Source: Lytechinus pictus (taxonomy: Eukaryota). From it: a DNA stretch of 64,000 nt. Positions within the stretch are counted from its first letter, which is position 1. Every line of letters begins with the position of its first letter. Shown piece by piece: positions 48,121-59,400 of the stretch. The stretch lies in contig NC_087250.1 of NCBI RefSeq assembly GCF_037042905.1, positions 5,334,001-5,398,000 on the forward strand, read 5' to 3'. A model generated the notes under the pieces. The model had not been told where the DNA came from. It worked only from the letters and a program-made list of their open reading frames with translations, and made no database searches. The translations under genes were made by a program, and so were the position numbers.

Positions 48121-50303
48121 CACCAACACCAGATTTCAACACTGTACTTGAAAATCATCCAATGACTGTTGCCTTGCCCTTGGTATCGCATACTCGTTCC
48201 CACTCACACGTATTGCGAGGTTAGTATTAGTCACTCACACAAGCTAATTACGAGGTTAGTTAGTATGTTATACTGTGCAGTGACTGGTGTTAAGTACTAC
48301 TTTACTACTACTTACATCAATATACTAGCGTCGGACTGTACGCGCACAGAAGCTGACTCCGGGATCTTTCGGAGGGGATCAATGGTTGCAGTTACTGATT
48401 ATCTGCAAGTGCAAAGAAAATTCCACTGTAGATTGTAGGTCCTAAATATGCAGCTTATAAGTACTGTTCCAGGTCACTAGATATTCTGGAATTTAATTGT
48501 CTATGTCCACTATCCAGTCCAAATTCTGCCAGATTCTTCAAGTTCAAAATTGAAGGAAGCAGACTACACACACATGACAGAATGAGTCCGACGTCGCGAC
48601 TTATTCTGCGCATCAGAATAGTATGGTATTTTTAAATAGGCACATTTGATGCTTGTATTTCCTTCTTCAATTTCTTCAAGTTATGTGACGGTAGGCCTAT
48701 GACATATCTCGTACTTACTGTGAAAGGCCTAGCCAGCTGCAAAGGACGAGGGCGTTTCTGGAAATTCTGGTCTTGAACTACATTTTTTTTCTTGTTTTTC
48801 TCCTTTATTTTCTACATTAATCGACACATTTGCATCCCCCGGTGCATGCAGCCTCTCTATTCTACCCCATCTTATTTTTGTTTTCCCCTTAGACTTAGTT
48901 TGAGTTCCTCTTTCCCTTCCCATTATTTCCTTCTCTCTCGATTTCTTTTCCCCTTATTGCTGGGGGATACCAAGGGTGACATGGATAGACAAGCAAACTT
49001 ACTTGATCGACACCCCCCCCCCCCCTTGGCCCCATTGGAAATTATGCGAGTAGTCGTCTGTATATCATTATCAATTCTCCAATGAACCAGTTTCTAACGT
49101 TCTCAACACTGTGTATATTATGCCGGGATATTATGTTGACTGTCAAACAAATATCCAACAAACTATAGTTTCCAACATTGTGTCAATGTTAACTGTCAAC
49201 AACTCTCCAATAAACTATTCCAATTACGCTGTCCACGTTGTGCCATTGTCCGTTGTTCAACAACTCTCCATCAAACTAGTTTCCAACTTTGTCAACGTTG
49301 TGCCATTGTCGACTGTCCAACAAATCTCCAAGAAAATAGTTTCCAACGTTGTTCCTTTGTCGGTTGTTCAGCAACTCTCCATCGAACTAGTTTCCGACGT
49401 AGTCAACGCTGTGCCTTTGTTGGCTGTTCAACACCTATCCAATCAAACACGCGTTTCCAACGTTGTGACGTTGTTGGCCGTGTCCAACAAATCTCCAACA
49501 CACTAGTTTCCAATGTTGTGCAATTGTCTGTTGTTCAACAACTTTCCAACGTTGCCAACGTTGTGTCATCGTCGACTATCCTACTGATCTCCAATCAACC
49601 AGTTTCCAACGTTGTGCCAGTGTCAGTTGTTCAACAACTTTCCATCTAACTAGTTTCCAGCTTTATCAACGTTGTGTCATTGTATACTATCTAACTAATC
49701 TCCAATCTACCAGTTTCCAACGTTGTGCCATCGTCGACTATCCAACAAATCTCCATCGAACTAGTTTCTAGCTTTGACAACGATGTGCCATAGTTGGTTG
49801 TTCAACAACTTTCCATCGAACTTGTTTCCAACGTTGCCAACCTTGTGTCATCGTCGACTATCCAACTAATCTCCAACCTACTAGTTTCCATCGTTGTGCC
49901 ATTGTCGACTGTCCAACAACTCTCCAACTAACAAGTTTCCAACGTTGCCAACGTCGTGTCATTGTTGATTGTTCAACAACTTTCCAGCGAACTAGTTTCC
50001 AACGTTGCCAACGTTGTGCCTTTGCTGGCTGTCAACAACTATCCGATCAAACGTGTCTCCAACGTTGTGACATTGTCGACTGTCCAACAACTCTCCAACT
50101 TACTAGTCTCCAACGTTGTGCCATTGTCGACCGTCCAACAAATCTCCAACAAACTAGTTTCCAACTTTGTCAACGTTGTGCCATTGTCGGTTGTTCAACA
50201 ACTTTCCAGCGAACTAGTTTCCAACGTTGCCAACGTTGTGCCTTTGCTGGCTGTTCAACAACTATCCAATCAAACGTGTTACCAACGTTGTGACATTGTC
50301 GAC

Positions 50304-50639
50304 TGTTAAGACCGTGTCAGCATATACCACGTTGTCACAATAACCACAAAGGAGGCGTATTCTAAAATTAGCTTCCTTTTAATACTTGGAAGTATCTCAG
50401 TAGCGGTGCTAGCTTGTAGCATATATTCAACAACTGTGTGTGAATCCTTCAGTTTTGTATTAAAAAACGAAGAAAACTCGGGATCGACCAAGGTCGATGT
50501 ACCTTCGAACGGTCTTGTTTTAGCTGTGACCTTGCTTTGACCTTGAAGGGTAATTAGTCTAAACTCAAGTACATGCAAAAAACCAAACATTTCAAAAGGC
50601 AACAATATCTGAATATCAAAACTATGTCATTCTATGACA
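50304..50639 (-). repeat. 3' LTR (336 bp)
   Basis: TGTTAAGACC...TCTATGACA on +; matches 56097-56433 except for one A in an A-run. Confidence 0.96.
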
Positions 50640-50652
50640 TCCCAACCCCCTA
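50640..50652 (-). other. Polypurine tract
   Basis: AGGGGGTTGGGA on the - strand directly precedes the 3' LTR. Confidence 0.75.
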
Positions 50653-50833: not shown

Positions 50834-53800
50834 CTAAATGTCTGAACGTTCCTCTCGCTTCATCAGAGATACAAGTTTAGTGATGGGTCTGTTTGCACAT
50901 GTGCCGTCTGCAAACTTCACTTCAACAATTCTTACCAGTCCATCTTGTCCAGGTTTGGTGTCTACTACTTCGGCCATCTTCCAAGACCCACGTCTTTTGT
51001 CATCACCGATGACAAGGACAATATCGTTCTTCTCCATGTTCTCTGCAGAATGTTGCCACTTCTGACGTGGCGTCAACTTGTGGATGTAGCCAAGCCATCT
51101 ATGCCAAAACCCGTCCACCATTTTATTGCAAAGTTCTCTACGTTTGCGTGGATCTCCTTTGTAGTCTTCACAAGGGATGTCTGGACAGGTCAATTCCCCT
51201 CTACCAATAAGAAAATGATTGGGGGTAATTGGAGGATGGTCCATGGGTGAGGAAGACATCGCAGTCAGGGGGCGGCTATTGATGAGACCTGAGATCCTGC
51301 AGAAGATGGTCTCCCATTCCACAAAGGTTAGACGATCCGCCTTCACAAGATGCCGCATAGCTTTCTTTACTTCCTGGACCATGCGCTCAACCGCTCCTTG
51401 GTGGTGAGGTCCTCCTGGTGGTCCGAACTTCCACTCGATTTTGAAACGTTGACAGTGCTCACGGACCTGTGTTTGGTTGAGTTTAAGATTCAGTTCATTG
51501 ATTGTATTGTCAGCCCCTCGGAAACAAGTGGCATTGTCACTAACCATCATGGCAGGTGCTCCTCTAACACTGACAAACCTTTCCAAGGCTTGAAGGAAAG
51601 CCTGAGTTGAGAGGTCCTGGACAACAGTCAAGTGGACAGCCCTGGTAACTGCACATGTGAATAAAGCACAGTATCCTTTGGTCGTGGTATTACGATTCAG
51701 TTTCACCATTACTGGGCCTAGATAGTCTACCAAGGTGGTCTTGAAGGGTGGAGAACAAGGGCTGATCCGGAACTCTGGTAAATCGGCCATTCTCTGGTGT
51801 GCCGGTCTTCCTCTATATCGTCTGCAAGGGATGCAACAACGAACAACACGTCGTGCGATGTTCATGTCGCCTACTATCCAAATCCTCTTCCTGACCTCAT
51901 TCGCAGTCCGCAAATGACCACCATGAAGGGCATGTAGATGTCTATCACGTACAAGGAGGAAGCTAATGTGGCTATTCTTTGGCAGAAGATAAGGATGGCG
52001 AACATCATACGACAAAGGGGCCCTACCAAGACGTCCGCCAACACGATACACCTGTTGGTCCTCATCAAAGAATGGACTGAGTTTCTGTATATTGGGATCT
52101 TGGAAATATATCCCTTTCTGTGCTTGCCTGACCCAATATAGCTCTGCTTCCTTGATCATTCTTTGGGATGGCCATTCAGAGATCTGCCGGATGAGTTGCT
52201 TCAGCCATTGATTCCGTGGAAGCTCCTTGAGGGATAACACCCTGGCCGTGACCATCTGGAGTCTAGACCAACTAGATAATTTGGTTGCATCAACAATTGG
52301 AGAATTCTTGGACACAGCATTCACAGATAATGCGAAAGTCTTGCTGTTTCGGGAGTGAAATTTCTTCCGTTCAGGATCTCCTGGTTTGACGGGAATGTTT
52401 TCAGGTGTCTTCGGCCATGATTGAGGAGGTAATCTCAAGAATCCTGGTCCATCAATGACCTCCTGCATGTCTGTGACATCGCCTCCTCTAGAAATGAGAT
52501 CAGCTGCATTTTCATCTGTGGGAACGTAGGCGATATCACTGTAGGGGTCAAATTCAGAAGTGATCTCACCAACTCGATGGGCAACATATGAGCGGAAGGT
52601 TTTCGATTGCCCTCTTAGCCAACTTATCACCGTCATGCTGTCTGTCCATATCTTCCATCCTTCTATGTTGAGGCGTAGAGCACTTCGGATGGTGTACATC
52701 AATCTGGATAGAAGGAGAAGAGCTTGTAACTCCTTCCGAGGCATACTTGTTTGCTTTAGTGGCGTCACCCTAGACCTGGCACAGACAAAGGATAAATGAG
52801 CTTGTTGACTGTCAGTATGGGACCATCTCAGCCAAACTGTGAAACCCATAGCGTCCTCCGATGCATCGCTAAAACCATGCATATATGCTGTAGGTAGAGG
52901 TCTCTTTCCCCTGTAAGGCTCCGGTATCAGACATCTTGGAATCTCAATGCCATCCATTTTGTCAAGGTCTCTGTTAATCTTACTCATCATGGCATACAAT
53001 TCACTGCTTTTGTCAATAGGGGAGTCCCAGTCAAGGTCTATTTGCCATAACATTTGAAGAAGAATCTTGGGGCGTACCAACAGACCAGAAAGCATTCCAA
53101 AAACATCGTAATAGGATGCCGTTTGAGCAAGAATCTTCCGTTTGGTCAGGGTAGTATCGTCAGAGGGTTTGACCTTCTTCACGCTCAGTGTATCCTTAGA
53201 TAGATCCCAACTGGTTCCAAGAACTGTAGCAGTTTCAGTGTTTTCTGTCTCGTCACATACCTTTTTCACATTAGATTGCCACTTCCTTATGTTGAAGTTT
53301 CCCTTCTTCAGCGTGTCCGTCAATTTAGACTTCAGCTCCAGAGCTTCCTCAGTGGTCCTGACTGACTCATTCAGGTCGTCCATATAGAATTGCTCCGTGA
53401 TTACTTTCTGTAGTTTGTCTTCATCCGGTGCATGTTCACTAGCCACATGTCTGAGAGTGACTATTGCTGCAGTAGGGGAGGGCTTGTCCCCAAATGTAAC
53501 GGTCCTCAGTTCATAGACTTGCATTGGGTAATTTGGATTTTCTCTAAACACAAATCTGTGGAATCTAGCATCATCTGGGGGAATCTTGATCGCCTGGAAC
53601 ATCTTCGAAATGTCAGCGATCACGCCCACTTCATTTTCACGAAACCGGAGGGCTACCTCAAACAGATTTGAGTTGACGTTCTCTCCTTTGATAAGATAAT
53701 CATTCAGGGAATGTCCTTGAAATTTCGCCTTACCGTCATATACAACACGGACTGGAGTAGTTTTTGAGTCTTTGACAACTGCGAAGTGTGGAAGGAACCA

Positions 53801-56059
53801 CATCTTGTTCCCTGTTTCCCTGTCTTGTTGCAACTCATCCTGCGTCACCAGCCGAGAGACACCCCTTTCCAGTTGATCCTTCATTTGCCGACAGTAGACC
53901 TCCCATTCCTTTGGGCGATTTCTGAACTGGTTCTCAAGGCTCTTCTGTCTCTTTACAGCGTACTCATAGTTATCTGGTAACCCTTCTGGAGATCGCTTCC
54001 AGGGTAAGCGGATCTCATAAGAACCATCTGGTAGTTGATTGACACTCTTCATCATGGATTCAGTAGCTCCTTTCTCATCATCAGAAATGCACTTGCATTT
54101 CCTGGGTTCCAAGCCAGCCGTCTCGAGTCCAATGAACTCCTCTAGGGATCCTGAAGCGACCACGTTAACGTAGTTAAGAAGTGGTGCTGTGTTAGATGGA
54201 CCTCCTTGAATAAACCAACCTAGGGGACATCTTACCGCAACTGGTTCATCGGGTCTGCCTCCTCTGATATATTCCTCCCAGACCATAAGGTGAGTATTGT
54301 CCACTCCAAGTAATATATCAATTACTGGTGATGAGGCTTCATCAATATTTACACCTGTCAGGTGGTCATAGGATTTCAGCTGCTCAGGAGTAATGACAGG
54401 TATATCTCCACAGGGTTTCTCGATCTCAATGGCTCTCAAGGGATATGAACAATTTCCTTGGCTATCCTCGATTTCACATTCCAGGATCCTCAGCTTGCGT
54501 TTGATGATGCTTCCACCTACAAGGCTCAGGTCATGGTCCTGGTAACAGTCGCCATCAATTCTGGAAAAGATTCCTGTTCTTACGAGGGTGGCCTGACTAC
54601 CCCCATCTATCAGGATGCGTACAGGGTGTCGTTTGTTACCACATCGCAGAAAACCCATCACAGTTGGTAAGGTAGCCTGCAGTTTCCCTACTTCTGTGCT
54701 TGTAGAAGATTGAACTGAGCTGTTGGAATGCATGGGTCTCACAATGTCTTCTTGATTAGCACTGACTCTTCGACTCTGATATCTGGCATCATCATGGGCT
54801 TTGGTACAAATGGCGGGAAAGTGCTCATCACTACCACACATCTGGACTCGACATGGTGACCTGAACTGGCACTTACTGTGGTCATAAGGTGGCTTGCCTG
54901 AGATACAGTTATTATGGCCACACCTGAAGCAGATGTTGTTAGACTTCATCACATCAAATTTCTCCTTTAGCACAAGAGACCTGAATTTATTGCATGTTTT
55001 CAGATAATGAGATGAGGTCTTTGGGTGCAGAGGGCACTTTGGGATGTGTGCAGTTGATGTATCCTCCCTCGACATGGCTGCGTTGAAGGACTTTGAAACT
55101 CTCTTTGTAGGTTCCAAGCTTTCAGATGTAGTAGATTTTGATTTCTCAATTAGGATGTGCTGTTGATATAGCCATTTGCTGAGTCCTGAGAGGGAATCAT
55201 CAGTATTGTCATCGCGAACACCTTTGTAATACAGAATCCTATGTTCCTCTGGGAGCTTCAACTTGATTTGGCTCAGCATAATCCTGCTATTCATCTCACC
55301 TGCTAAACCAATCGTCTCTGCTTGGCATTCAAAATTCTGAAGAACCTGGATGAAGTTTGCCATTGCAGGAAGATTAACCTTTCCTTTACTCTCATATGGC
55401 TTGAGACTATCCAAATCCTGTAGCAGTCTGTCAACTACTCGGTCTTTGTCATCAAAGCGTTGGTCTAGCATCTCCCATGCTCTTGCTACACTCGAACAGC
55501 TTTTGACCAAGTTTCTTTCCTTCTGAGACATCATTGATTCTGACAACTGGAAGAAACATTCAATCTCCGACAGTTCCTTCGTACAATGTTGGAACATTTC
55601 CTTGAATCTCTGATATTCCCTGATATCTCCATTGAATGTTGGGAATTTAAGTCTCGCCATCCTGGGAGCACAGGCACCTGCAGATTGATTCCGAGAGGTA
55701 GGAGCAGGAGAGCTTGGAGGAGTAGTTGACTGTTGATTGGATGCTTGGTTGATTGATGATGGCGACAGCTGTTTGCTGAGGATTTTCCTACCATCATTAA
55801 TCTTCTGGACAAAGTCTGCCTCACAGTTGACCATCCAGGTTTCCTCTGCTTCAAATTCAACGTCGTTCTCTATTACCTGTACAAGCTCTGCGTGCGTCTC
55901 TTCTACCCTTGCGAACTGTTCCTCGGCCTTGTCGATGTACTGCTTGAGGAGACTAGTATCTGCAGAGTCATTGGAGAGGTTGACAATAGCTGTTAATGTC
56001 CTCGTCAATTGTCCCTTCAGATTGCGCCTCGAAACCTTTAGAGCCTTTGTGTCAGCCAT
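50834..56059 (-). CDS. BEL/Pao Gag-Pol polyprotein (Gag, Cys/His knuckles, protease, RT, RNase H, integrase)
   Basis: RLKFPTFNGD (Gag); ILIDGGSQATL (protease); FLPHFAV, ADISKMF and FYMDD (RT); HGFSDAS and WTDSM (RNase H); H..HGGH..CIPC, VDYLGP, SDNATCF and GAVERMV (integrase). The order PR-RT-RH-IN and these motifs fit BEL/Pao. First ATG at 56059. Confidence 0.96.
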   Translation of the reverse strand: MADTKALKVSRRNLKGQLTRTLTAIVNLSNDSADTSLLKQYIDKAEEQFARVEETHAELVQVIENDVEFEAEETWMVNCEADFVQKINDGRKILSKQLSPSSINQASNQQSTTPPSSPAPTSRNQSAGACAPRMARLKFPTFNGDIREYQRFKEMFQHCTKELSEIECFFQLSESMMSQKERNLVKSCSSVARAWEMLDQRFDDKDRVVDRLLQDLDSLKPYESKGKVNLPAMANFIQVLQNFECQAETIGLAGEMNSRIMLSQIKLKLPEEHRILYYKGVRDDNTDDSLSGLSKWLYQQHILIEKSKSTTSESLEPTKRVSKSFNAAMSREDTSTAHIPKCPLHPKTSSHYLKTCNKFRSLVLKEKFDVMKSNNICFRCGHNNCISGKPPYDHSKCQFRSPCRVQMCGSDEHFPAICTKAHDDARYQSRRVSANQEDIVRPMHSNSSVQSSTSTEVGKLQATLPTVMGFLRCGNKRHPVRILIDGGSQATLVRTGIFSRIDGDCYQDHDLSLVGGSIIKRKLRILECEIEDSQGNCSYPLRAIEIEKPCGDIPVITPEQLKSYDHLTGVNIDEASSPVIDILLGVDNTHLMVWEEYIRGGRPDEPVAVRCPLGWFIQGGPSNTAPLLNYVNVVASGSLEEFIGLETAGLEPRKCKCISDDEKGATESMMKSVNQLPDGSYEIRLPWKRSPEGLPDNYEYAVKRQKSLENQFRNRPKEWEVYCRQMKDQLERGVSRLVTQDELQQDRETGNKMWFLPHFAVVKDSKTTPVRVVYDGKAKFQGHSLNDYLIKGENVNSNLFEVALRFRENEVGVIADISKMFQAIKIPPDDARFHRFVFRENPNYPMQVYELRTVTFGDKPSPTAAIVTLRHVASEHAPDEDKLQKVITEQFYMDDLNESVRTTEEALELKSKLTDTLKKGNFNIRKWQSNVKKVCDETENTETATVLGTSWDLSKDTLSVKKVKPSDDTTLTKRKILAQTASYYDVFGMLSGLLVRPKILLQMLWQIDLDWDSPIDKSSELYAMMSKINRDLDKMDGIEIPRCLIPEPYRGKRPLPTAYMHGFSDASEDAMGFTVWLRWSHTDSQQAHLSFVCARSRVTPLKQTSMPRKELQALLLLSRLMYTIRSALRLNIEGWKIWTDSMTVISWLRGQSKTFRSYVAHRVGEITSEFDPYSDIAYVPTDENAADLISRGGDVTDMQEVIDGPGFLRLPPQSWPKTPENIPVKPGDPERKKFHSRNSKTFALSVNAVSKNSPIVDATKLSSWSRLQMVTARVLSLKELPRNQWLKQLIRQISEWPSQRMIKEAELYWVRQAQKGIYFQDPNIQKLSPFFDEDQQVYRVGGRLGRAPLSYDVRHPYLLPKNSHISFLLVRDRHLHALHGGHLRTANEVRKRIWIVGDMNIARRVVRCCIPCRRYRGRPAHQRMADLPEFRISPCSPPFKTTLVDYLGPVMVKLNRNTTTKGYCALFTCAVTRAVHLTVVQDLSTQAFLQALERFVSVRGAPAMMVSDNATCFRGADNTINELNLKLNQTQVREHCQRFKIEWKFGPPGGPHHQGAVERMVQEVKKAMRHLVKADRLTFVEWETIFCRISGLINSRPLTAMSSSPMDHPPITPNHFLIGRGELTCPDIPCEDYKGDPRKRRELCNKMVDGFWHRWLGYIHKLTPRQKWQHSAENMEKNDIVLVIGDDKRRGSWKMAEVVDTKPGQDGLVRIVEVKFADGTCANRPITKLVSLMKREERSDI

Positions 56060-56096
56060 CTTGCGTTGATAATATACAACCAAGTTGTTGAAGAAC

Positions 56097-56433
56097 TGTT
56101 AAGACCGTGTCAGCATATACCACGTTGTCACAATAACCACAAAGGAGGCGTATTCTAAAATTAGCTTCCTTTTAATACTTGGAAGTATCTCAGTAGCGGT
56201 GCTAGCTTGTAGCATATATTCAACAACTGTGTGTGAATCCTTCAGTTTTGTATTAAAAAAACGAAGAAAACTCGGGATCGACCAAGGTCGATGTACCTTC
56301 GAACGGTCTTGTTTTAGCTGTGACCTTGCTTTGACCTTGAAGGGTAATTAGTCTAAACTCAAGTACATGCAAAAAACCAAACATTTCAAAAGGCAACAAT
56401 ATCTGAATATCAAAACTATGTCATTCTATGACA
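56097..56433 (-). repeat. 5' LTR (337 bp)
   Basis: Direct repeat of 50304-50639; ATTAAA on the - strand at 56171-56176. Confidence 0.96.
56219..56262 (-). promoter_or_regulatory. Predicted LTR core promoter (TATA-like box and initiator, +1 about 56228)
   Basis: The - strand reads TTTTTAATACAAAA, then CAGTT about 28 nt after the TAATA start; this lies upstream of the ATTAAA signal. Confidence 0.5.
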
Positions 56434-59400
56434 GTCGACTGTCCAACAACTCTCCAACTAACAAGTTTCCAACGTTGCCAACGTCGTGTCATTGTTGATT
56501 GTCCATCATCTTTCCATCAAACTAGTTTCCAACGTCGATTCAACGTTAATCCATCAAGTTTTTCCAACGTCCAACGACTTTCAAGTTTCCAACGTGGAGC
56601 CAACGTTGGCTTGTTACCTGGGATTGTATGTAAGGTGATTGAATTATTCGTTGAGCGTAATTATCAAATGAATTACAAGGAAAGAGGATCTTCTGGCAGG
56701 ACCCCTGTCGATACGATCGATAAACTTGACAATACATAATCCAGTCTAGTCCTATACCCGTGTTTCATCATCATCTGCTGTAATCTTCAAAGGGCTCTGC
56801 AGCCTATCACGAAGATGAACTGAAACTTGGACGCACGTTATGAGGAGGAGTGAGGAATATTTTCAAGGTGATTTTGCAGAAGCTTTTGAAAGCTGTCAAG
56901 CGAGACTGCATTAACTATTTGGAAAGGGAGTTTATTCAATTCAGGTACAGATCGTTGGGCAAAGGCAAATTTGTCAATATTGCCTCTTGGACGATATGTC
57001 TGAAAACACTTGTGATTTTTCCTAGTGACAGTGGTGCTTAAAGAGAAGAATTTGTCTTGGGGTATTGCAGCAAGGTCATTTACAATCCTTTACACCATGC
57101 TGAGTCTGCTTACAGTGCGTCGAGAAGACAGACTAGGCCACTTCAGATTGGTGAGCATGCTGGTTACGCTGCTGGTTCTACTGTAATCAGCTAAGACATA
57201 GCGAGCCGCTTGCCTTAATTTGGATTCTTTCCAAATTCTGTGTATCCATGATAGAGTTTCTGTGTCCGTAGAACTATTTCAGGTCCAAACTAGCGACACG
57301 GCTGTCCATACACGTTATTATGATCCGCAAATGGCTGCAATTTTATAAATTTTGCAAAGATAATTCTTTATATTGTTCTACCTTTATGTCATTCTATGTT
57401 ACATATCATAATTTTTCATTTCCTTTGGTTTTGTATTGATTTTGTTTATTTATTTATTTATTTTGTTTTATTTATTTTATACTGCAGGGTAGGCCTGTTC
57501 AGTTCTTAAAACTGCTTTACAAAGGCGCCCTGCAGTTTAAAATACATGTCAAGATAACTATGAACAACAACAACAAACAACATCAAAAATACAAAATACA
57601 AAATATCTAACATCAGAAACAATTAACACCAAAATATAGAGTGGGAAGTGACAATTTAAACATACATAGCATTGTAAATCAATGGAATATCATTTCGCTC
57701 TTTATCAATTCGTATGAAAGGCTTGCTCGGTGTGGTCGGAGATTTCCTTGATCACCAGGCAAACCAGCGTGTGCAATTGTTAATGTACACATATCCTATG
57801 GGGCCATCCTAATTCTGTGTTACAGATATTGGAATTGAACAGGAGCTAAATCACATGGTAATAGTGTGAGTGGTTATTTGGTAAATTTGATGTTCTCAAC
57901 TTATTTAGCACATAGGCTTAGCAAGTCACAAGTCGAATGAAGTGAAGGCTCTCGACAGCTGGCGAGGATTCAGGGGGGGGGGGGGTTATGCGATTGTGGC
58001 AGAGGTGCGTTCACACCCAATAAGAATTAAAATCTAGGTAAAAAAAAAAAATTAGATCCAAGTTTTAAATGGTGCCGCTCGCCGGCGCGGCCGGCCCGTG
58101 GCCGTACTGGTATAGCCTATATAGGCTTAGATCTATCATAAATTATCTTTGACTTTGCGCACCCACGTGAAATGAGCCATGGCATAGCTCTCCCTATTAA
58201 AAAAAGATTGAATGTCCAAATTGGGGGGAGACGATATAATGCTCTTCATTTGTGTGCGATTATGAAGTTCGTTTTGCTTTTATTTTTCTGAGTTATTTTT
58301 TAAAACAAATTACTATTTAGCATCCTATAAATTTTGACACTGAATCTGCAATAGCATCGGTGTTATTGGGGTAAATACATTTAATTATTGTTGATAATGT
58401 CTCTTAATCTGTTTTTTGAAAAATATTGTCGTACCACATAAAGTTAAGAGTCTAGTCACACCTAACCTTAAATAGCATGTAAAGGTTAGAGGTCTCTTCA
58501 TTAGAAAAAAATATAGGCGAATATGTAATGGACCTCATCAATCCCAAGTATTTTTCTGCCTTGAATCTCATATTAAAGTTCCATTGAACAAAGGTCACAG
58601 TCCAGAAATAGTTGGCAGTTTGATGGGGATGCAATTTGCTGCAGTTATGAATTAGGAGCCTATTCATATCTTTTTATTAATTTGATCGTGGCTTTTAACC
58701 GGCAAGGTATCCAAGCGCTATTGGGTTCGAAAAAACTTTTCTTTTTATATTTGAATAAAAAAAAAATTATTGAAAAAACTGTTTTACTATTCGTATGGTT
58801 AATGTGTTAATGACCGTCTTGTTTATAATCAAGTGAAAATTATATGAATTAACGAACATGATTGGTATATTTGATTATTCTCCTTTATGAAATGTCAACA
58901 ATATTCATTGACAGTGGAGTATTTTTCAATGATCACTGTGTAAATCTACATATTTTCTTTGCTACATGTATATCAATGTGATATTATTAATATTTTAATT
59001 TCAGACTATGGATATTTGAACAATATGCAGAAGAAGACGGGTCTGGAACTAGAAAGCTAGGCTCTGACTGGTCTACTACAGAAAGGAATGTGCCAGCGGC
59101 CAATCTAATGAACATGTGGCAGAAGATTTGGCCATGTGTGAAGAAATACTGAGATTGAAATGCTACCACAGGTAAAATGTAGACTAGTAAAATGCGATAA
59201 TGATTACAAATTAAATAATGAAGGATATTTTTTTGGTTGCAGAATGTTAAATCATTAAAACCCACTTCAATGACAATGAAATCAGACTTTGACCAGATTT
59301 TCTAGTTAAAGTCAGTTTGTAATGCAAACATTACATAAACATGAAAGACATATAAAAAAATCAATATGTTTTACATGTTAGCTGCAGGGTCAGCGGAACG

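Follow-up and report, generated by a model that had tools for sequence, protein, structure and literature searches.

An intact BEL/Pao retrotransposon of Lytechinus pictus that probably primes reverse transcription with its own RNA

Introduction

How does a BEL/Pao retrotransposon begin minus-strand DNA synthesis when no recognizable tRNA site follows its 5' long terminal repeat (LTR)? The question is raised by an element on the minus strand of a 64,000-nucleotide stretch of Lytechinus pictus DNA (assembly GCF_037042905.1, contig NC_087250.1, positions 5,334,001 to 5,398,000), here called the window. A short site just past the 5' LTR is the exact complement of a segment within the LTR itself. 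This pairing sits at the LTR end of the unique 5' region (U5), is conserved, and covaries over about 20 related families, and LTR introns have been lost precisely in the window element and in one other family. We conclude that the window element probably starts minus-strand DNA synthesis from a piece of its own RNA and not from a host tRNA. For the BEL/Pao population of this genome as a whole, self-priming is well supported by sequence comparison. The most unexpected result is a link between the primer-binding site and an intron located inside the LTR.

BEL/Pao elements are regarded as primed by tRNA, and annotation pipelines search for sites of that kind. Self-primed reverse transcription was reportedly described in Tf1 and Tf2 of Schizosaccharomyces pombe by Levin in 1995 and by Lin and Levin in 1997. 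In Tf1, the duplex is 11 nucleotides (nt) long and the cut is made by the ribonuclease H (RNase H) of the element. To our knowledge, self-priming has been shown experimentally for Tf1 and Tf2 only and is inferred for the Tf1/sushi group of Ty3/gypsy. PMC6934838 lists known self-priming elements, including Tf1/Tf2 and the Tf1/sushi group, and Tf1-type self-priming is described in PMC5445492. A full-text literature search, with subscription journals and supplements outside its coverage, found no paper on self-priming in BEL/Pao; primer-binding sites, tRNA and priming are not mentioned in the BEL/Pao survey PMC3118150.

Results and Discussion

The element and its primer-binding site

The window element is an intact BEL/Pao LTR retrotransposon (Table 1). 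Its gag-pol is an uninterrupted single frame in which Pfam recognizes DUF1759 (residues 142-284), RVT_1 (795-926), Peptidase_A17 (972-1141), Integrase_H2C2 (1369-1416) and DUF5641 (1640-1732). The frame therefore has the BEL/Pao domain order, in which gag DUF1759 is followed by reverse transcriptase, Peptidase_A17 and integrase. The ends are likewise of BEL/Pao type, with TGT...ACA LTRs and a short target duplication. An initial annotation, made from the sequence alone, had assigned the element to BEL/Pao, and the domain set of the 1741-aa frame bears out that assignment. Its coordinates all proved correct on reading of the minus strand and in a repeat scan.

Table 1. Coordinates of the element's features in the window (a slash marks an exon-exon junction)
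Feature	Position	Strand	Description
5' LTR	56433..56097	minus	TGT...ACA (TGTCAT...CTTAACA), 337 nt
3' LTR	50639..50304	minus	336 nt; sole difference from the 5' LTR is one T fewer in a T run
Target-site duplication GTCGAC (6 bp)	56439-56434 and 50303-50298	minus	Flanks both LTRs
Spacer GTTC	56096-56093	minus	Between 5' LTR end and primer-binding site
Primer-binding site TTCAACAACT	56092-56083	minus	10 nt, 4 nt past the 5' LTR
Proposed self-primer segment AGTTGTTGAA	56228-56219 (5' LTR), 50435-50426 (3' LTR)	minus	Exact complement of the site
TATA-like TAATA	56255-56251	minus	27 nt upstream of 56228; belongs to long-LTR 'exon 1'
Poly(A) signal ATTAAA	56176-56171	minus	53 nt downstream of 56228
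Exon-exon junction ctgaag/GATTC	56240/56239	minus	Trace of a precise loss of an intron of about 803 nt
gag-pol, single open reading frame	56059..50834	minus	1741 aa; Pfam domains
Putative purine-rich tract before the 3' LTR	50640..50651	minus	Assigned from sequence only; the 68%-identical family has TTTGGGGGGATGGGA there

The reverse complementarity between TTCAACAACT and AGTTGTTGAA is exact over 10/10 nt, and the base beyond 56228 is unpaired. The 811-Mb genome from which the window comes was searched for other copies of the family. At all six distinct 5' LTR junctions found (contigs C6, C7, C12, C13, C15 and C21), the sequence is GTTCTTCAACAACTT. Among the 25 LTR rows listed for the family, AGTTGTTGAA is kept in 23; one of the others has a deletion and one is incomplete. 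The position of the LTR end is fixed because the sequence past ...CTTAACA is different at every 3' or solo LTR copy. The proposal that the site after the LTR pairs with the element's own LTR is thus upheld, both by the 10/10 match and by its retention across the junctions of the family.

A TGG occurs 15 nt downstream in the window copy, where five other junctions of the family have TTTGCTG. Since the TGG varies among junctions of one family, it does not mark a conserved tRNA site. The genome has 24 exact matches to the complement of the 14-mer formed by spacer and site. Neither the 18 of these loci that are not copies of the element nor six scanned loci with one mismatch contain a tRNA according to ARAGORN. 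A match to a host tRNA, which the initial annotation had named as a result that would undo its proposal, is therefore absent from the scanned 14-mer loci; an internal tRNA fragment is excluded for the 14-mer only.

The pair is also retained in a sister family with 68% identity to the window family. Here the partner lies 125 nt from the LTR end, the spacer is TC (2 nt), and the LTR has a length of 1305 nt that is unrelated to that of the window family.

Covariation among BEL/Pao families

Relatives were collected in two ways. A protein search yielded the 68%-identical family and several others at 32-33% identity, and a genome search with DUF1759 yielded at least 146 gag matches belonging to more than 20 families. 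We took both ends of 8 elements and, for 20 more, the 1.3 kb upstream of the gag domain. Peptidase_A17 is in the same frame as DUF1759 in 19/20 of the latter, the twentieth (L091) being a second copy of the L089 family, so that all 20 count as BEL/Pao. After exclusion of second copies (B68, G33, L091, L100) and of unusable sequences, 22 representatives were left. The unusable sequences were F32 (no LTR pair in the pieces examined), L092 (a rearranged copy of the L090 family) and L096 (LTR end unrecognized). LTR ends were guessed by eye before complements were scanned for. The guess for L099 was wrong and its end was reset by eye; genome searches upheld the guessed ends in all six families tested.

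In 20 of the 22 representatives, 7-11 nt starting 0-5 nt past the LTR end are complementary to a segment 33-230 nt before the LTR end. The 20 pairing representatives have 11 different duplex sequences (Table 2). As each of the 11 pairs with its own LTR, the changes between families are compensatory. The test of covariation in related families, by which the initial annotation had proposed to judge the pairing, is thus strongly positive and is strong evidence for Tf1-like self-priming. The 4-nt gap between LTR and site, which had been listed there as a weakness, is not one, as offsets of 0-5 nt occur across families. No representative (0/22) has a TGG start within 5 nt of the LTR end, so the absence of a TGG-type tRNA site noticed in the window holds for the whole set.

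Table 2. Pairing segments in BEL/Pao families, with the exon ends that extend the pairing across the predicted splice junction
Family or representative	LTR segment	Site	Upstream exon end	Matching bases of site
Window family and 68%-identical family	AGTTGTTGAA	TTCAACAACT		
L083, L087	GATTGTTAT	ATAACAATC	TTCG (L083)	CGAA
L085	GAATGTTAT	ATAACATTC	ATTTG	CAAAT
L089	GTATTCTAT	ATAGAATAC		
L088, L098, L099	AGTTTTCAC	GTGAAAACT		
L093	AGTTTTTAC	GTAAAAACT	AAGGAG	CTCCTT
D33, E33, I33, L094 (6 nt in H32)	ATTGAAT	ATTCAAT	AGAA (D33, I33); AAGAA (E33)	TTCT; TTCTT
L090	GTCGAAC	GTTCGAC	TGTT	AACA
L097	ACTGAAC	GTTCAGT	TGAT	ATCA
L102 and long L095 variant	ATTGAAC	GTTCAAT	CGTT (L102); TGTT (L095)	AACG; AACA
L101	GTTAAAC	GTTTAAC	ACAGTTG	CAACTGT

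Background rates were estimated with 21 representatives and the last 300 nt of the LTR. An exact complement of at least 9 nt is present in 9/21 of them vs 2/126 control windows taken downstream. With shuffled 14-mers, a complement of at least 9 nt was obtained in 78/4200 cases and one of 10 nt in 18/4200.

Introns inside the LTR

In nearly all families, the partner segment is preceded by a T-rich tract and CAG. An interpretation of this feature as an initiator was dropped, as the window family and the L095 family show it to be a 3' splice site. Long-LTR copies of the window family (about 1140 nt) contain about 803 extra nt exactly at 56241-56239. The insert reads ctgaag/GTACGT...tttgttatttgctacag/GATTCACACACAGTTGTTGAA, with the borders ctgaag/GTACGT...ctacag/GATTC. 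The 337-nt LTR of the window is thus the precisely spliced, intron-less form of the long LTR, and this is true of both of its LTRs. Most copies of the L095 family similarly read ...gccaatgtt/GTAAGTTG...cattgaattacag/ATTGAAC, and one element of that family has the exact junction TGTT/ATTGAA in both LTRs. Precise loss of a GT..AG segment from both LTRs is the expected outcome when an RNA is spliced within its 3' LTR copy and then reverse-transcribed. Because the L095 family has both long and intron-less LTRs, spliced RNAs must have been reverse-transcribed and integrated repeatedly.

Exact GT..AG removal is seen in these two families. The L093 family was considered as a third case and rejected, its candidate copy having an internal deletion of the intron. 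In the window family, short-LTR and long-LTR copies form a star-like pattern with no shared diagnostic sites and 4-10 private differences per 1500 nt. Intron-less copies such as that in the window may still transpose or may be dead-end products. In the L095 family, the two forms come from a comparison of L103, L104 and L105 (G000:C2:42221233-42222300, C6:2811380-2811663) with L095, in which long and precisely intron-less LTRs have the borders gccaatgtt/GTAAGT...ttacag/ATTGAAC.

Sites that match a spliced junction

The site of L095, GTTCAATAACA, is an 11-nt perfect complement of TGTT/ATTGAAC; the unspliced sequence matches it over 7 nt only. Fourteen further families with enough upstream LTR were scanned for any GT site preceded by bases that extend the complement. 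Such a site is present in 14/14; it lengthens the complement by 3-7 nt, to 11-14 nt overall. In 15 families, therefore, the site appears to be a perfect 11-14 nt complement of a predicted exon-exon junction, to which the upstream exon contributes its last 3-7 nt and the downstream exon its first 6-8 nt. The window family and its 68% sister are not among these 15.

Six families have their extending site at the best 5' splice consensus. A GTRAGT site in H32 and L090 extends the complement by 4 nt and a non-consensus GT extends it further, and in L097 a GTAAGC site extends it by 7 nt and a GTGAGT site by 4 nt. Near-consensus donors (GTAAGA, GTCAGT, GTATGT) are found in L083, L089, L088, L098 and L093. 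Extensions of at least 4 nt occur at 9/19 strict GTRAGT sites vs 23/1178 of all GT sites; of the evidence for the junctions, this excess at consensus donors is the part that stands independently. Compensatory pairs are found on both sides of the junction, as in CGTT/ATTGAAC with GTTCAAT/AACG and TGAT/ACTGAAC with GTTCAGT/ATCA.

Many donors occur in the context GCC(C)AA-NNNN/GTAAGT, and the complement stops directly after the GCC(C)AA motif. This motif is conserved at the exon-1 ends of eight families, 3-5 nt before the 5' splice site and adjoining the pairing nucleotides. Candidate roles are those of an initiator, a CCAAT-type box and a splicing signal.

The window clade has an unbroken complement 13 nt downstream of the verified 3' splice site. 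Its 3-nt extension follows common AAG/GT-type exon ends, and the 68% family has no consensus donor. One speculation is that a second acceptor, cacacag/TTGTTGAA, which lies 13 nt past the verified one in long-LTR copies, would give an 11-nt junction complement in this clade as well.

Position of the RNA start

AATAAA or ATTAAA occurs between the partner and the LTR end in 11/17 families. These signals number 11 per 2045 nt downstream of the partner vs 3 per 4968 nt in the 300 nt upstream, which is more A/T-rich. This layout is consistent with a partner near the border between the unique 3' region (U3) and the repeated region (R). Together with the abrupt end of the complementarity, the place of the poly(A) signal would suit a partner at the extreme 5' end of the mRNA. 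The partner was also considered as the poly(A) site itself. This was rejected, since ATTAAA lies at most 60 nt upstream in 2/17 families only (both at -12), as opposed to a downstream signal in 11/17. None of the listed data sets containing the stretch is recorded as RNA. Three raw RNA runs provided 13, 4 and 42 reads and one contig run provided 4, with no pile-up of starts or ends at this depth.

The 5' end of the primer should coincide with the abrupt end of complementarity, because the plus strand would copy the primer as far as its 5' end and a long tail would block the second strand transfer. On this reasoning, the primer of the window copy is predicted to begin at 56228 and that of most other families 3-7 nt upstream of the 5' splice site. 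An end at the latter position would in turn mean a mini-exon and a spliced 5' end. Upstream of the mini-exons, a search for TATA boxes found A/T-rich boxes at varying distances with no consistent pattern.

The simplest alternative, proposed in the initial annotation, is that transcription of the window copy starts at the A of CAGTT (56228) from an ordinary promoter of TAATA and initiator, so that the first 10 nt of the RNA are the primer. The complement does end exactly at 56228, TAATA and ATTAAA are present at the distances given in Table 1, and plus-strand transfer would need a short primer whose 5' end is the end of the duplex. The promoter role is the part of the proposal that fares less well and is probably too simple. 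Since the window LTR is an intron-less derivative with its junction at 56240/56239, TAATA belongs to exon 1 of the long LTR and adjoins the 10-mer only through intron loss; the two are about 800 nt apart in the long LTR. In other clades, 3-7 nt of the complement belong to the upstream exon, and this puts the start of the RNA ahead of the intron; by analogy the start in the window could be near 56242. The few reads of the raw runs likewise show no pile-up of starts. A start at 56228 is possible but on balance doubtful.

In run X11, about 30 nt into the LTR, the depth over 56404-56433 falls from roughly 7 to roughly 1, with few reads and an unclear strand convention. An initiator-like TTCAGAT, with its A at 56404, lies near this drop.

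Proposed mechanism and its alternatives

In the mechanism that we infer, including the cut, the ends of the primer, the start of the RNA and its spliced nature in most families, TTCAACAACT would pair with AGUUGUUGAA in the leader transcribed from the LTR. Cleavage after the paired leader segment would leave a 3'-OH, from which reverse transcriptase would extend through U5. The plus strand would then copy the primer, and the site would be rewritten in each cycle. Rewriting from the primer would explain why complementarity is perfect even though the sequences are family-specific. A minimum-free-energy fold of the window leader pairs 10/10 partner nucleotides with the site. At least 6 partner bases are paired with the site in the folds of 15/17 families, a result that is expected from complementarity and adds little.

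In most related families, where a GT..AG intron inside the LTR splits the partner, the primer would most likely be the 5' end of the spliced leader. The RNA would begin inside the LTR, a few nt upstream of the 5' splice site. An LTR intron of 0.2-1.1 kb would then be removed, a mini-exon of 3-7 nt would be joined to the downstream exon, and only the resulting spliced 5' end would be perfectly complementary to the site over 11-14 nt. An RNA would thereby be licensed for self-priming once its 5' leader is spliced, the long LTR would be maintained where the 3' copy keeps its intron, and intron-less LTRs such as those of the window would be by-products. That a large BEL/Pao radiation primes reverse transcription with a self-primer assembled by splicing is a tentative proposal, which we consider somewhat more apt to fail than to hold.

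Several observations weigh against self-priming or against the part that splicing would play in it. The 10-mer of the LTR segment is abundant in a host satellite. Two representatives, L084 and L086, have no convincing pair (their LTR ends are unverified), and some duplexes are only 7 nt long without splicing. The tRNA comparison is confined to the loci of the 14-mer. The start of the RNA, its cleavage and a primer joined to strong-stop DNA are all deduced; the best run has 42 reads and no pile-up. As for splicing, intron-less copies confirm it in two families only and confirm the junction complement in one (L095); elsewhere the donors are predicted, and were selected in part for the complementarity at issue. 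The junction rule is absent in the window clade, where the extension of only 3 nt is not significant. The window copy itself may be defective: with an RNA start upstream of 56228, its primer would have a long 5' tail and might not work.

The pairing could instead be a regulatory or structural helix of the leader, with a role in packaging, dimerization, control of LTR-intron splicing or translation, and the true primer could be different. Long-range leader helices are known in retroviruses and Ty1. The partner abuts the 3' splice site in nearly every family, so that a helix could hide or present it, and the primer itself is known from inference only. Such a helix would not account for the position of the site, which starts 0-5 nt past the LTR end in all 20 pairing families. 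It is here that the first base to be copied sets the end of U5, so that anything paired at this point is placed as a primer would be. No other primer site, whether of TGG type or conserved across families, was found, and a perfect Watson-Crick match that stops abruptly at 10-14 nt fits rewriting from a short primer better. We therefore regard a purely regulatory or structural helix as unlikely.

Priming by a host RNA whose match to the LTR is incidental, be it a piece from within a tRNA, as in copia, or a different small RNA, is very improbable: the window and 68% families do share a site as they would with a host primer, the tRNA comparison is limited to loci of the 14-mer, and AGTTGTTGAA is abundant in a transcribed host satellite, but a host primer does not predict that 11 different sites match their own LTR, mostly at their own splice junction, no tRNA is present at the 24 scanned loci, and no site starts with TGG.

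Comparison with known systems

Priming from the element's own RNA, as proposed here, is closest to that of Tf1/Tf2. In both cases no tRNA site is present, a short site by the 5' LTR can pair perfectly with RNA from the LTR of the same element over about 10-14 nt (11 in Tf1), and the pairing covaries among relatives. Unlike the Tf1/sushi group, with its Ty3/gypsy-type pol and usually a chromodomain integrase, the window element has a BEL/Pao pol and no chromodomain; it resembles Tf1 in its proposed mode and is not a member of that clade. The elements described here also differ from Tf1 in that the complementary RNA of most families is predicted to exist only after splicing of the LTR intron, and in that the RNA start and the RNase H cut are deduced.

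Drosophila copia is primed by an internal fragment of initiator tRNA-Met. As in copia, the primer sites described here are not complementary to the CCA end of a tRNA; in contrast to copia, with its match to a host tRNA, they differ by family and match each family's own LTR. Ogre of legumes is an LTR retrotransposon with an intron. It is thus another case of a spliceosomal intron in an LTR retrotransposon whose spliced copies can be reverse-transcribed. Unlike in Ogre, the intron here is inside the LTR and its exon junction is matched by the primer-binding site. The published BEL/Pao elements that we consulted are described with tRNA sites, among them Achilles of Bactrocera oleae with a tRNA-Tyr site (PMC4580426). 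The window element shares with Achilles the gag-pol domain set, TG...CA LTRs and a single long frame. The two differ at the primer site, with a TGG-type site in none of our 22 representatives and a match to the own LTR in 20.

If self-priming is confirmed, about 20 families in one animal genome use their own RNA, and tRNA-independent priming extends to a second superfamily. It would account for the failure of tRNA-based site finders on such elements, and would put these sites beyond the reach of host defences based on tRNA fragments. LTR-type elements without a recognizable tRNA site are reported in the bivalve paper on TRIM elements (PMC6934838). The result is also relevant to the idea that tRNA priming arose later than hairpin or self-priming; hairpin priming is discussed as a possible ancestral state in PMC3601003. 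The complement of an exon junction, finally, suggests that splicing and the initiation of reverse transcription are connected, a connection of which we encountered no description in the literature searched.

Genomic context

The genome contains at least 146 matches to DUF1759 and at least 150 to Peptidase_A17, many of them in open frames of 1650-1950 aa. These numbers indicate that its BEL/Pao population is unusually rich and young. The window family scores lowest against the Pao model (about 136 bits vs 160-193). In the 68% sister family, five otherwise full-length copies (G000:C2:24892719-24897992 and four others) have one or two in-frame TAG codons per frame, which suggests readthrough of a stop codon between gag and pol.

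The element is inserted in a tandem-repeat satellite, which occupies 49173-50306 and 56434-56600 of the window and has periods of 51, 60, 111 and 222. The target duplication GTCGAC belongs to the satellite unit. On the element strand, the satellite holds AGTTGTTGAAC, the same 10-mer as the LTR segment, seven times in the window; in all, the 10-mer occurs 10 times in the window vs 0.3 expected. Clusters of AGTTGTTGAACAAC are found on several contigs, C1 and C2 being among the rows listed, and the satellite flank is covered by RNA reads of runs X9 and X10.

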